Source of the DNA: Ophelia neglecta
Taxonomy: Eukaryota
NCBI GenBank assembly: GCA_965285935.1
Contig: OZ260661.1
Location: 100,006,001 to 100,070,000, forward strand
Direction of reading: 5' to 3'
Length of the DNA: 64,000 nt
Positions 4,084-10,200 of this stretch are shown one piece after another. The notes below the pieces were generated by a model. That model did no database searches. It saw only the letters and a program-made list of their open reading frames with translations, and was not told the origin of the DNA. Made by a program: the position numbers and the translations under genes. Each line of letters starts with the position of its first letter. Within the stretch, counting starts at the first letter, position 1.

Positions 4084-4756
4084 ATGTTGGCCGCCAAGTC
4101 CCCCTACGACCCCAATGCGAGTGGGGCCTACTCGATGCCCAGCATGACTATGGGGTCCACTTCGATGTCTTCGATGCCCATGAATTCCATGGCATACAGC
4201 AACATGGGGGGCATGGGCTACAATCCTCAGGCAGCCATGTCTCAAATGAGCTCTATGCACGGGACGACAGGCATGAGTCCCGGCATGGGAGGCTCTCCCA
4301 TGGGCGCCATGGGTACGATGATGGGCACCCAGGCCATGAATACGATGGGCGGAATGAATATGGGCATGAACGGCATGGGACAACCGGCGGGCTTGGGCAT
4401 GGGCATGACGGGCGTCAACTGTATGACAGGGATGACCGGCGGGCCCATGTCCCCCGTCTCGCCTGGCATGGGGGCTATGAACAGCATGAACAGCATCAAC
4501 CGCGCTCGGGAGAAGACCTACCGGCGCTCGTACACCCATGCCAAGCCACCCTACTCCTATATCAGCCTGATAACCATGGCTATCCAGAACTCTCCTAGCA
4601 AAATGTGTACCCTTAGTGAGATCTACCAGTTCATTATGGACCTGTTTCCATTCTACAGACAAAATCAACAACGTTGGCAAAACTCCATCAGGCATAGTCT
4701 ATCCTTTAACGACTGCTTTGTCAAAGTGCCTCGTTCTCCGGACAGGCCGGGTAAAG
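4084..4756 (+). CDS. foxA: FoxA (forkhead/HNF-3) transcription factor, coding exon 1: Met/Gly/Ser-rich N-terminus and most of the forkhead domain
   Basis: ACCATG start with an in-frame TAA upstream at 4066. Translation contains [81 protein letters not shown], diagnostic of the FoxA class. Ends at donor AAAG|GTGAGG (phase 1). Confidence 0.97.
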
Positions 4757-5307
4757 GTGAGGACATATTTAATTCTCATTTATTTCCATTACAATGATTA
4801 GTATCAATACGGTCTTAAACCCGTCTGCTCTAATTTTAAGCCCTAGCATGTATTTATTTTTCAATATCAGGTTTGTCCCAACGTTTTTATTGTAAACATT
4901 GTGTCACGTTCTTTCCACAATATTTGAAAGCCTCTCCATGATCACAGTATAGGCCAGTACAGGCGTACTAGTTGATAGGCGTGCCTCAGAATAACATAGG
5001 TGTCAATTGCAATTTAAAATTTTGGCAAGTATGGCATCTTTCTGCGAAGCACATTTTGTGCTTAAGACGAGTTTCACATCGCCGGCTTCATGTGGCACAA
5101 CCACGAGTAGGCCTACGTGTTATCGGCTTCGGACTATACAAATTAAAGGAAATTAAACAAAAAACCGGTGCCAAGAAATAGTAACATCAGCTAATTGATA
5201 CTCAGTAATTTTCCAATGGGAATTGGTGGCAAATTCCATTTTCTACCTTTAAATTATTCTTTGAATTTCTGTAGACTAAAACAACTATTCTATTGGTTAT
5301 TTTGTAG
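4757..5307 (+). other. foxA: FoxA intron, 551 nt, GT-AG, phase 1, interrupting the forkhead domain at PGKG|SYW
   Basis: Donor GTGAGG at 4757 and acceptor TTATTTTGTAG ending at 5307. Splicing restores GGA-TCC-TAC-TGG (G-S-Y-W) in frame. Confidence 0.95.
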
Positions 5308-6086
5308 GATCCTACTGGACCCTTCACCCTGACTCGGGCAATATGTTCGAGAACGGCTGCTACTTGCGACGTCAGAAGCGTTTCAAGTGTCCGAAGAAGG
5401 AGACAATTAGACAGGCGCAGAAGACATCCTCACAGACGGTCACGAGTCCCGGGGGCACTCCCCTCGAGTCTGCCGACTTGAACGGCTCTCATGAAGAAGA
5501 CCCAGACAGTGAGGATGAAGGTGACTATAAGCCACAACACCTGGATCCCCAGGTGAGCCAACAACAGCAGCAGCAGCAACAACAACAGCAACAACAGGGT
5601 GGGCCAGACAGCCATCTGCCTCCCCAGCATCAGGGCCATCCGCAGCACCCTCAGCACCATGGGGGTGTCAACTCCGTCGATACTACCTCGCCCCTCAACC
5701 GCCAGCCTAAGGTGGAACCCGGCGATATGCCAGTCTCTACGGCCCCCGGCATGATGCCCAGCCAGGCCCAGGCGCCCATCTCCAGCGAGGGACATATGCC
5801 TCTCCGGCCCATGACCCACGACGGCAATTTGGCTCACATGCACCATCATCCGGCGATGATGATGAACGGGCAACACTTCAACCACCCATTCTCCATCACG
5901 AACATTATGTCTGCAGAATCGAAACAGCAAATGGACTTGAAAATGTACGAGCAAATGCAGGGGGCCTACCCGACATACGGTCAGATCTCACCAGTGTCAC
6001 ACATTCCGAAGGAGGGAACACCAATGCCAGGGGGTGATGGCAACTACTACAAAACATACACCCCCCACTCGACCGCCGGCTTGTGA
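5308..6086 (+). CDS. foxA: FoxA coding exon 2: end of forkhead domain, polyQ, EH1 motif, C-terminus; spliced protein 483 aa
   Basis: Reads [28 protein letters not shown] (FoxA wing 2), then HPFSITNIM (EH1/HNF-3 region II, 5883-5909), and ends [16 protein letters not shown]. Exons of 673+779 nt give 1452 nt = 484 codons. Confidence 0.97.
5559..5597 (+). repeat. Mixed CAA/CAG tract encoding 13 consecutive glutamines in FoxA
   Basis: caa caa cag cag cag cag caa caa caa cag caa caa cag, in frame. Confidence 0.95.
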
Positions 6087-7265
6087 CTAGAGGAACTCTA
6101 GGCTAAACAAGGCGGAGAGCACTCAACTCTGTCACTAACTCTTTTCATCACAGCTCATGGAGGCACGAACTCTTCACAAATTTGCCAGTTCCAGGGTAGA
6201 ATTGCGGTTCTAACCGGGAACTGGTCACCTCGTTCAGAAAGCAAAGAACAGTCTACCTTAATAATCCCAGAACATACGACAGTTCAGGAACTTTCTCGAT
6301 ATGGTCTTTACAATGTGGAGGCTACATCGTATACTCAAACACTTTGTGCTACAAATCGTTTTATGTACGTTAAAATCATCGTCTAGATGAAGTGTATACC
6401 AAAGATAATCTGTGTCAATGGACTCGGCGACTCACATAATGAATCTAGGGTCTATGTACTGCATTTTCACAGATAACAAAGCTGACTCTAAACAGTTCTA
6501 AAGTGATTAGCAAAGAGATTGATAATTATTGAGTATTGTACAATAAGGAACTTTCTACGCAATATTTTGATGTCAGCGCGATGAATCCGTATCTCAGTTT
6601 ATTTTGTTGAAGCCATGCTGAACAACTTCACTTTTGTGCAAAGGCATGTAAGTTGAGTTTCGATATTTGTATTCAAAGCTGCCTTTATTATTTAGGCCCA
6701 ACAATGAACAAGGAACCAGGCTTTTTACTTTAAATTATTAGCTCAAATTATGGTCTATATTTTAATAACAAATGAATAATTTCCTCAAGTGTTAAATTGT
6801 ACAAATTTCTGCATTGCTGCTTTTTATTTGAATATGGATCTGTGTTTAATTATATTGGAGTTTAAGCTGTATATATTTCGGTAGATTGGGAAACACGATG
6901 TAAATGTTTTAGACTCCTTTTCCCAATTCTAAAATTATTATTATTATATATATATATAGAGTTAGATTGATGTGATTTCTATTTCGAGATAGACATATAG
7001 ATCATGAATTCAAATGTTTTTTGCAAGTAATGGTTGCTTCATATATATGTTGAATATATAGAAAATAAACGCTGTTGCGTTGACAATTTATATGGACTCT
7101 TTGGAGGTTTATTTTTGTTCGGTTTAATGACATCCAAATGTGGGAATAAACATTCATATTTTCTCTAAATATGCATATTTTCATCTCAATGTAAATTCAT
7201 CTGTCCAAGTATTCAGTGTTTATATTGTCGATATGGCCATTAAATGAACAAATATCATCAATGAA
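6087..7265 (+). other. Probable FoxA 3' UTR
   Basis: Increasingly AT-rich after the stop; Pumilio-type TGTATATA at 6868; ends at the poly(A) signal candidates. The end is approximate. Confidence 0.55.
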
Positions 7266-7285
7266 AATATTGTTGTTGCTCGCTT
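7064..7285 (+). terminator. Candidate FoxA polyadenylation signals
   Basis: AATAAA at 7064 and 7145; ATTAAA at 7239 followed about 30 nt later by a GU/U-rich tract (TTGTTGTTGCTCGCTTTT). Confidence 0.5.
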
Positions 7286-10200
7286 TTATATATATATTAT
7301 ATAGATGTATGTATATAATGTGTATATCTATATAGGCCTATATGTACATAATGCTACATATACTCGAACAGATTTAAAGTGCGTGTTGAGCTAGGCCAAG
7401 ATTCAGTTACTTAACTTATTACGAGGGCCGATTTCAAATCGAGACGGCAAAAAAGCCTTATTCTTGTGAAACATGCAGACTCCATTTTGTTTGTAATTGT
7501 TTGGTGCAAAATAGAAACGTTAAAGCCGCAGTGTGTTTAATTCGAGCCTGTAGTTTTATCTTAGGCTAAGGCCACACAGAGATATGAAGTACTATCTTAC
7601 CTAGGTATTGGTTGCTAGGCTCGCGTGAGCCGAATTTTGTGGCGTAGATTTGCATGCTAGATAAGGCCGCCATTTCAGCCATAACGGGAGGGGGGGCACG
7701 ACTTAAAGCATTGTGCCTATATTCACGCGCACAAAAAAATATTGGCCGGCTGGACAGAAACCGGCATGTAGCTTCAATTGTATGCATAAAGATATCGGTT
7801 TTATGTTCGGTTCGAGGAAATTCCTGCTGTTTCATATAATTATCCAATTCCTAATAACTACTCTGAAATTTACATAATTCACCGCGAACAGGTATACACA
7901 TCTGCAATAAGTAAGCCATTGTTGTGTATTCCTGCGTCTGCGCGCCGGAGTGACACCTGCCATATTTGGAGCACTTGTCAGCCGAGCTTATCTGGCGGGA
8001 ATTTCAGCTGACAGCAGGTTGAACTTGACATACCCCCGAAACCCCAAATAACCGTATTGCACCATAGCAACTAACATAATTTGACTTCCCGTTTATAGAG
8101 ATATTTTGGGACTAGTGACACAGTAATGTCAAATCATTATCCTTTACTCGTGAATAAATTAGGTAGATTATAAAATTGGCTTGTGCTAAAATACACCACA
8201 CCAATTACAGTACTGCGGCGACCTTAAGGGGTTGCAGTCACGATATAGTCTACCCTAAAATATCAATTTCGAACTAGGGAGCTAATATAATAGAGAAACC
8301 ATGTATAGTTACCCAATCACTCGCTTCATTCTGAAAAGTCGTTCGAGGTAACCAGGAGACACAGGTTGATGTAATACCTTTAGTTATAACCGGCTTAAAG
8401 ATATCGGGAATATAGAGCCATGTTCTAATATAGGTCTTAGAGTTTTATTATACACTTGACCTTACTTAGATTCACTAATTTAAGAGAAAAAAATCTTATC
8501 ATTAGCAAGAGTTGATACTTTGATATATGAAAATGTTGTTGTTTATTGTAGCAATGATTAATCACAAGATATAATTAGATAAACATTAACTGCATGGGAG
8601 GTTTTCTAAATCACTATTTCGCCCATTTAGTCCTGTAGCCCAAGACATGCAGGCCTTTATACCATTCACAGAACAGGCTAGTAAATCATAGCGGCTTAGG
8701 CCGCCATCATAACATTGGACTCGCTATACGATTGTTGTTGTTCCACTTAAAGTATTATTTCACTGGAGTGAAAAATCGTGTAAGGTGATAAGTACTTTTC
8801 ATTCACTCTCGGTATCGCCACAAGCTTATAAAAATATGGAAACATACTGCTCAATATTTTCAACACAAATTTGAAAATACAATGACACGGAACTGTATGA
8901 AAATGCGAAAAACAAATAAATTTCATTCTTGAATAGCAGGTCGAAGAAGAGAATTGGTGTACACCGGGCAACTGGTTAGTAGAAAGAACATCAGATTAGT
9001 GTGTTGACACCTAGGTTGGCACACAAAATAATACACAGATTTTAGCGCAATTATTTTCTAAAACATTGTTTTTTCAGGGTTTAGGTGATTATACTGAGAA
9101 ATGGCTCGCGACAGGAAACAAACGAATACCTTAGAAAAATAATCTCTGATTTTTTCTTGGGGCCGTTTACTTTAGTGTTCTCAGCTCAATTTTCTTTTCT
9201 TCTGTCTGGGGAGGTTAAACATTGGCGCTTGCGGACACAGTAGATACTTACCATAAGTCGATGGGGTGGTGGGCACGGCATTTACCGCACATTGATCACA
9301 GAACAATGTGTTCTTTAATCAACCACTACCATATTAAGAATTGTTGTCATCTACCATTGTTAAGGTCATCAACAATTAAGGATTATGCTTTATAATCCTT
9401 TCACTCGTTTAACATGTTGTTGTAGCCTTTATCCAGCATATATAAGCTTTGATGCCCCCTTTGTGTTTAAGGTGAGAAAGACTACTTAAGGCTTAGTACA
9501 ATTATAATTGATCGCGATGGTTTCGAAACGGTCGTCTGCCGATATGCCCATCCGTTCAAAGTCCATCAGTTGTTTATGTCGTCTTAATTTCTTATTTCAA
9601 ATGTGTCAACAAGCTTGCTGTGAAGTCTGGTTGTAGAATTGTGATCTTATGTACCAGGCCTATTTATTATTAACAAAATTTATATCGAAATTGTTCTACT
9701 TTTCGTACATTGTTACTTTGAAAATAATATTGGTTCCAACAGTTGCTATACGTGCATGTAGGCCTGCGCAAAAAGGTAACAAAAAAAGACATCTGCTTTG
9801 CACCTGAAATTGGATTTGTTTTATTTATAGGCCTACTTCCGAATCGATTTTTTTACTATTTTGCTTAAAACATCAGATATAAATTTAAAAGGCCTTATTT
9901 GTGTACAACTTGTTTATTGATCCTTGGCTAAGACCATGGTTCAAAATGAAATTCAGCAATTGCTATTTCACATAAGTTCATCTTCAATTTTTATTTTTGT
10001 GCAGAAGTGATTTAATACAGGTACAAGCCAGGCTATAATACACCATCCATATAATTTGAGGCCTATATACAAATCGTGCGTTCGTTAACGCCTGTGGCCC
10101 AATAGCAGACGACTTTGGATTGATCTTTTCCCGCCGAGATGGTCCTACACCCACAATGAAGCCGAGGTCGATGGTAGGGTCGCGCAGTTCACTCGATGTA

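Follow-up and report, generated by a model that had tools for sequence, protein, structure and literature searches.

A likely lineage-restricted readthrough context, UGA-CUAG, with a short retained tail at the stop codon of a spiralian FoxA gene

Introduction

The described systems closest to the stop codon considered here in terms of motif are the vertebrate genes OPRK1, OPRL1, AQP4, MAPK10, and MDH1, which share with it the seven bases UGA-CUAG and a short extension, with no distant structure needed (PMC4132726). These vertebrate cases are reporter-tested and conserved vertebrate-wide, whereas the present candidate is lineage-restricted and concerns a forkhead transcription factor. In human, 23 genes carry UGA-CUAG, a conserved coding signature being present in 4 of them with MDH1 borderline, and UGA-CUA alone results in 1.5% readthrough in human cells (PMC4132726). 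On its own, the motif is weak evidence of readthrough and, since it proves little by itself, it is conservation that decides the case.

Respective to the gene, the closest system is the insect FoxA ortholog, i.e., Drosophila fork head (fkh, FBgn0000659), which is listed with Anopheles AGAP001671 as an ancient TGA-C readthrough pair (PMC5100048 Data S1) and which a 2026 atlas preprint places in tier 1 with a score of 12, all three Ribo-seq classifiers predicting it (PMC13278127); fkh is absent from two small supplementary files of PMC3840789. The sequence-only reading of the present locus had known of no readthrough in a FoxA gene of this type, a statement that these listings overturn, though the insect tail is unrelated (PMC5100048, PMC13278127). 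Like the gene described here, fkh and AGAP001671 combine a FoxA ortholog, a TGA followed by C, and a short second frame, of 8 and 7 codons as listed (PMC5100048; PMC13278127 Tables T3, T9). They differ in what follows TGA, namely CAG/CAT in the insects versus CTAG in the window (the whole stretch of 64,000 nucleotides that was analysed), and in the tail, ..QYPLA/QHQYPIA versus LE[E/Q]L in the window and in P0121, the predicted protein of a relative, between which there is no visible likeness that would indicate a homologous tail. In addition, fly fkh is listed as a double readthrough of 174 codons, whereas the third frame of the window is unconserved, and fkh belongs to a different superphylum from the spiralian FoxA of the window. 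Abundant conserved readthrough is considered typical of Pancrustacea (PMC5100048), and in the fly, readthrough is predicted for about 10% of the transcription factors (PMC8417969). The organism here is a spiralian and not an insect.

Two further systems can be compared. Drosophila dfr/vvl (PMC8417969; bioRxiv 10.1101/2025.11.07.685291) likewise encodes a transcription factor of development, for which readthrough yields an isoform extended at the C-terminus and a stem-loop is predicted after the stop, but with UAG, a long disordered extension and a stem of ~50 nt from +9/+10. At the present locus, the hairpin comprises 15 nt and begins at +4, and the extension would be of five residues. In a spiralian, as here, readthrough has been proposed with antibody support for the Platynereis FVa/EFLGa precursor (PMC3890597), which, unlike FoxA, encodes neuropeptides and whose second coding region is long. 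Readthrough of a spiralian FoxA was not found in the literature, of which subscription papers and supplements may contain it.

The FoxA gene and its stop codon

The gene was identified as FoxA, which acts in the development of the gut, by a profile search of its translated product, which matched Pfam Forkhead_N, Forkhead, and HNF_C, and it is present in one copy in the genome. All features of the window given hereafter lie on the + strand. FoxA is composed of two exons and encodes 483 aa from the ATG at 4084, namely (i) coding exon 1 (4084..4756), with a Met/Gly-rich N-terminus and most of the forkhead domain, and (ii) coding exon 2 (5308..6083), which comprises the HNF_C domain (about 5880-6002) and the terminal motif and ends on the last sense codon TTG (Leu). 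Between them, a GT-AG intron of phase 1 (4757..5307), placed within the forkhead domain (PGKG/SYW), was inferred from frame and homology, and in P0121 intron-like sequence precedes the same point as the intron end. At 5559-5598, a CAG/CAA run encodes about 13 glutamines in exon 2, and this run is of a different length in P0121. Two AATAAA hexamers at 7064 and 7145 (7064..7150) are candidate polyadenylation signals. Besides FoxA, no clear gene-like long frame was found among the 22 stop-to-stop frames of at least 110 aa in the window, and the gene seems to be located in gene-poor DNA (window 7500-64000; frames of at least 110 aa). In the protein alignment, the C-terminus agrees with spiralian FoxA; a tree built with a quick method groups the window and P0121 at 99, leaves the phylum unfixed and has Capitella as the nearest named row by path.

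Positions 6081-6101 read TTG TGA CTA GAG GAA CTC TAG, with TGA at 6084-6086 and TAG at 6099-6101, and the translation across the end of FoxA is HSTAGL-stop-LEEL-stop. The first stop is thereby in the UGA-CUAG context (6084..6090, read from the sequence) and is followed by an extension L-E-E-L with the second stop TAG (6087..6101), a segment which also forms a 6-bp hairpin with loop GAA. Both the context and the X-L-E-E-L frame announced by the sequence-only reading are therefore borne out by sequence and translation. That the UGA directly in front of CUAG truly terminates the main frame follows from the protein alignment, in which the last FoxA residue is Leu in 22 of the 23 aligned proteins, each of which either stops there or continues as a W-extension. 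On the + strand, 3/1226 TGA triplets of the window have CTAG directly after them, so that the earlier estimate of 1 in 256 for a given 4-mer was about right.

Elsewhere in the same genome, four other Fox genes end on TAA-C, TGA-A, TAG-G, and TAG-G, and MDH1 has no UGA-CUA context, so that it does not serve as a control from the same genome. Vertebrate MDH1 acquires a peroxisomal targeting signal by readthrough. Here, cytosolic MDH1 (L094, G000:C1 about 102385000) ends KACQD-TGA-TGT, the next frame encoding CAAANL before TAA, and we take the -ANL behind this stop to resemble such a signal. A search of the genome for an EFLGa-type precursor pattern returned 47 scattered matches versus 73 in the control, with no tandem cluster.

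Conservation in two relatives

Organism B corresponds to run X4, from another study and conceivably RNA, of which one contig was compared with the window; runs X2 and X3 yielded no contig, which is uninformative, and X1 may derive from the sample of the window itself. The X4 contig aligns over 5915-6101, breaking off exactly where the second stop is completed; beyond 6101, 289 window bases (339 organism B letters) are skipped and are unalignable at 80%. This piece contains 13 differences, of which the 11 listed ones are at third codon positions only, ten being silent and one changing Met to Ile, and 8/20 four-fold sites are changed, i.e., a distance of about 0.57. Differences near the end of a piece are unlisted and the exact CUAG letters of organism B are undisplayed, but as the two unlisted differences are near one piece end or the other, stop and tail (18 bases) contain no more than 2 differences. 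The chance of at most two changes in 15 nt, given the rate at four-fold sites, is 0.027. One conserved block is nevertheless not rare, since 152/799 UTR bases align in organism B in any case. From the contig alignment, three blocks of the 3' UTR are common to organism B, namely 6391..6419, 6532..6569, and 6816..6900, the last one reaching the end of the compared stretch. These blocks include TGTACAATA and TGTATATA, which we presume to resemble Pumilio-type elements.

The other relative is represented by P0121, the only close match among 37 in a search at 50% representatives; short fragments from relatives were sought as well, with no match, and a search of a prokaryote genome collection found no relative. 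With 69% identity over exon 2, P0121 ends HSTAGL-W-LEQL, the tail being four codons then a stop in each case, LEEL in the window and LEQL in P0121. Across the only two relatives compared, the second frame is thus open and conserved in length and sequence. The E to Q change of P0121 is the one known residue change in the tail and maps to the loop codon of the hairpin, and no synonymous change was observed inside the tail. Because P0121 differs from the window at QGG and HIQ, where organism B does not, the two relatives are not the same species. P0121 represents a third species, which is more distant than organism B. Terminal W calls occur elsewhere in the collection, where P0125 ends STTL-W-VSN and its cluster mate P0235 ends STTL, and on this comparison such calls are TGA read as Trp, exposing the sequence behind the stop. 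The W of P0121, known as protein only, could be a real TGG. Its tail (W-L-E) is compatible with UGA-CUAG, the codons being known only via the protein, and out of 288 possible codon spellings of LEQL-stop, 48 begin with CTAG and 4 keep a perfect stem.

Post-forkhead identity between the window and P0121 (164/213 columns) is like that of Dreissena/Mya (136/185) and below that of Lottia/Patella, from which it can be inferred that neutral sites are probably far diverged. In a simulation of neutral evolution allowing no indels, and with the P0121 distance inferred rather than measured, three of the four residues and the stop were retained in 2.7% of cases at a distance of 0.57, 0.24% at 1.0, and 0.03% at 1.5.

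More distant FoxA genes

From 80 metagenome FoxA loci, 37 had a full C-terminus and gave 27 distinct stop contexts. TGA is the stop in 21 of these and TGA-C the context in 16, 11 of the 16 coming from one look-alike cluster; several spiralian loci carry TGA-A, TGA-G, or TAA-C. The conservation that the sequence-only reading had proposed as a check is accordingly limited to the two nearest relatives (organism B and P0121), where the CUAG letters are not directly displayed, with TGA-CTAG in 0/27 of the distinct distant contexts. The terminal motif occurs in 74 proteins, of which 8 (7 distinct) continue as a W-extension, and LE.L is the tail of P0121 alone, the other W-extended calls having it in 0/6. 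Within this sample, TGA-CTAG with its tail is lineage-restricted. Separately, all members of a divergent FoxA-like cluster (L007, L010-L012, L017, L019, L037, L046, L068) exhibit TGA-CGTCA at the stop (palindrome TGACGTCA), with extensions of 4 to 73 codons where measured; as these lengths vary, a DNA motif is more likely than readthrough in that cluster.

The hairpin and the third frame

The sequence-only reading had pointed to the mini-hairpin CTAGAG-GAA-CTCTAG (6087-6101), which indeed folds, with 6 bp, -6.2 kcal/mol, and a z of -2.85 for a stretch picked post hoc, but which lies too near the stop, at +4, to be a classical stimulator. Perfect 6-bp stems begin at 199/64000 window positions (0.3%), and four of the six pairs come for free since CTAG, its own reverse complement, occurs twice; over 6084-6200, folding is no better than in shuffles (z -0.11). 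Beyond the A-site codon, some 11-12 nt are enclosed in the ribosome entry channel, and the spacer of known stimulators is eight or more (PMC13517186), whereas no stable structure beginning at least 8 nt behind the stop, as in the MoMLV, alphavirus, or dfr type, is present here. Starting within the 11-12 nt covered by the ribosome, the hairpin must be melted at the moment of UGA decoding, and it is not of a known stimulator kind. At most, its role would be that of a pre-termination brake, or else it would be a by-product. The hairpin ends where the block common to organism B ends (6101).

Behind the second stop, 94 codons are open in the same frame (about 6102..6386), a segment unaligned in organism B. 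Its GC3 is 0.35 versus 0.68 in exon 2, and a Pfam search of this frame gave no match. Runs of at least 94 open codons come after 28/6706 window stops and in 80/5000 dinucleotide shuffles (0.4-1.6%), and this third frame is probably due to chance. A double readthrough into it was considered and is unsupported, given the lack of a Pfam match, the low GC3, and the absence of alignment in organism B. The frame echoes the double readthrough listed for fly fkh, without conservation or coding bias.

Competing explanations

The explanation that we regard as likely, on the sequence comparisons above, is a selected, lineage-restricted UGA-CUAG readthrough in this FoxA, giving a minor isoform ending X-LE[E/Q]L; the sequence and the frame are observed directly, the retention of the block in the two relatives only in part. 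From established UGA-CUAG work, the release factor would compete poorly at such a stop, and a few percent of the time UGA would be decoded by a near-cognate tRNA. The near-cognate tRNAs that decode UGA are those for Trp, Arg, or Cys. The ribosome would presumably then halt at the UAG five codons on. Since the last FoxA residue is near-fixed, adding the tail would mask a free C-terminus that is conserved with an acidic-hydrophobic pentapeptide, which most likely would alter the half-life or the cofactor binding of the extended fraction. A C-terminal -EL and D/E-x-hydrophobic are degron or PDZ type signals; such readings of the tail were considered and set aside, -EL not being kept in P0121. Nonstop extensions stabilise human FOXA1 (PMC12976096), and the end of this protein is hence sensitive to additions.

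The main rival, which we consider unlikely, is that the 18-nt block corresponds to a conserved untranslated element, e.g., a small stem-loop or a protein-binding site, readthrough being incidental. The perfect 6-bp stem, which on its 3' side likewise finishes at 6101, the location of the sole known change (E to Q) in its loop and the three further conserved UTR blocks are all in line with such an element, but the stem is weak, closes a loop of 3 nt and owes 4/6 of its pairs to the two CTAG copies, and a longer stem using 6102-6113 would involve bases unaligned in organism B. An untranslated element would moreover have to start with the exact leaky motif and finish on an in-frame stop, and over 5900-7400 there is no Rfam match at gathering score (9 weak hits). 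It is still less probable that nothing is selected, i.e., that a chance UGA-CUAG leaks a little and that the relatives resemble the window through residual common ancestry or because the second stop serves as a back-up. Most human UGA-CUAG genes have no coding signature (PMC4132726), and the context is missing from distant FoxA genes and supported by just two relatives; against this stand the small, though non-independent, chances of neutral retention, 0.027 for organism B and, for P0121 at a distance of at least 1, no more than about 0.002, as well as the expectation that selection for clean termination should purge CUAG, not retain it.

Least probable of all, and in our view very improbable, is that the tail is reached via selenocysteine at UGA, via A-to-I editing that converts UGA into UGG, or via a splice that joins 5552/5553 with the AG at 6100-6101. 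No SECIS family is among the 9 Rfam hits (E up to 5, 5900-7400), with the limit that the models can miss a divergent SECIS. Splicing can invoke a donor-like CAG|GTGAGC at 5552/5553 in frame with the AG, and would open the 94-codon frame, whose length is rare by the counts given above; yet the AG has no pyrimidine tract ahead, P0121 shows Q-T and not Q-V near the donor position, where the alignment is gapped, and conservation is on the side of the would-be intron and absent from the would-be exon.

Insect fork head and an ancient origin

Returning to fkh, the insect-type loci of the collection (L049, L054-L056, L073, L074-L076) keep TTG-TGA-CA, with the tails QHQYPIA, QYPLA, and HHATHPYALA, like HHQYPLA of D. 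grimshawi; the QYPLA tail occurs in two spellings, with synonymous changes and second stops TAA/TAG. As judged from these sequences, this suggests that fkh readthrough may extend well past flies and mosquitoes. The window has C-TTG-TGA-C in common with 3/3 aligned insect-type loci, which is a hint only, because TTG-TGA is also found in two spiralian-type loci without the following C. We regard it as doubtful, if conceivable, that a leaky TTG-UGA-C stop has been present in FoxA since the insect-spiralian ancestor (or was regained independently), its tail having turned over and the readthrough having been lost in many lineages. If true, a pioneer transcription factor would be controlled by a switch to a second C-terminus that recurs in evolution, outside the Pancrustacea to which abundant readthrough is considered confined.

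Biological significance

Few spiralian examples of readthrough are known. A conserved example in a gene whose fly ortholog is a known readthrough gene would offer a clean test of whether the readthrough of a single gene has an ancient origin or arose by convergence, as well as of the effect of a five-residue change at the conserved C-terminus of FoxA.
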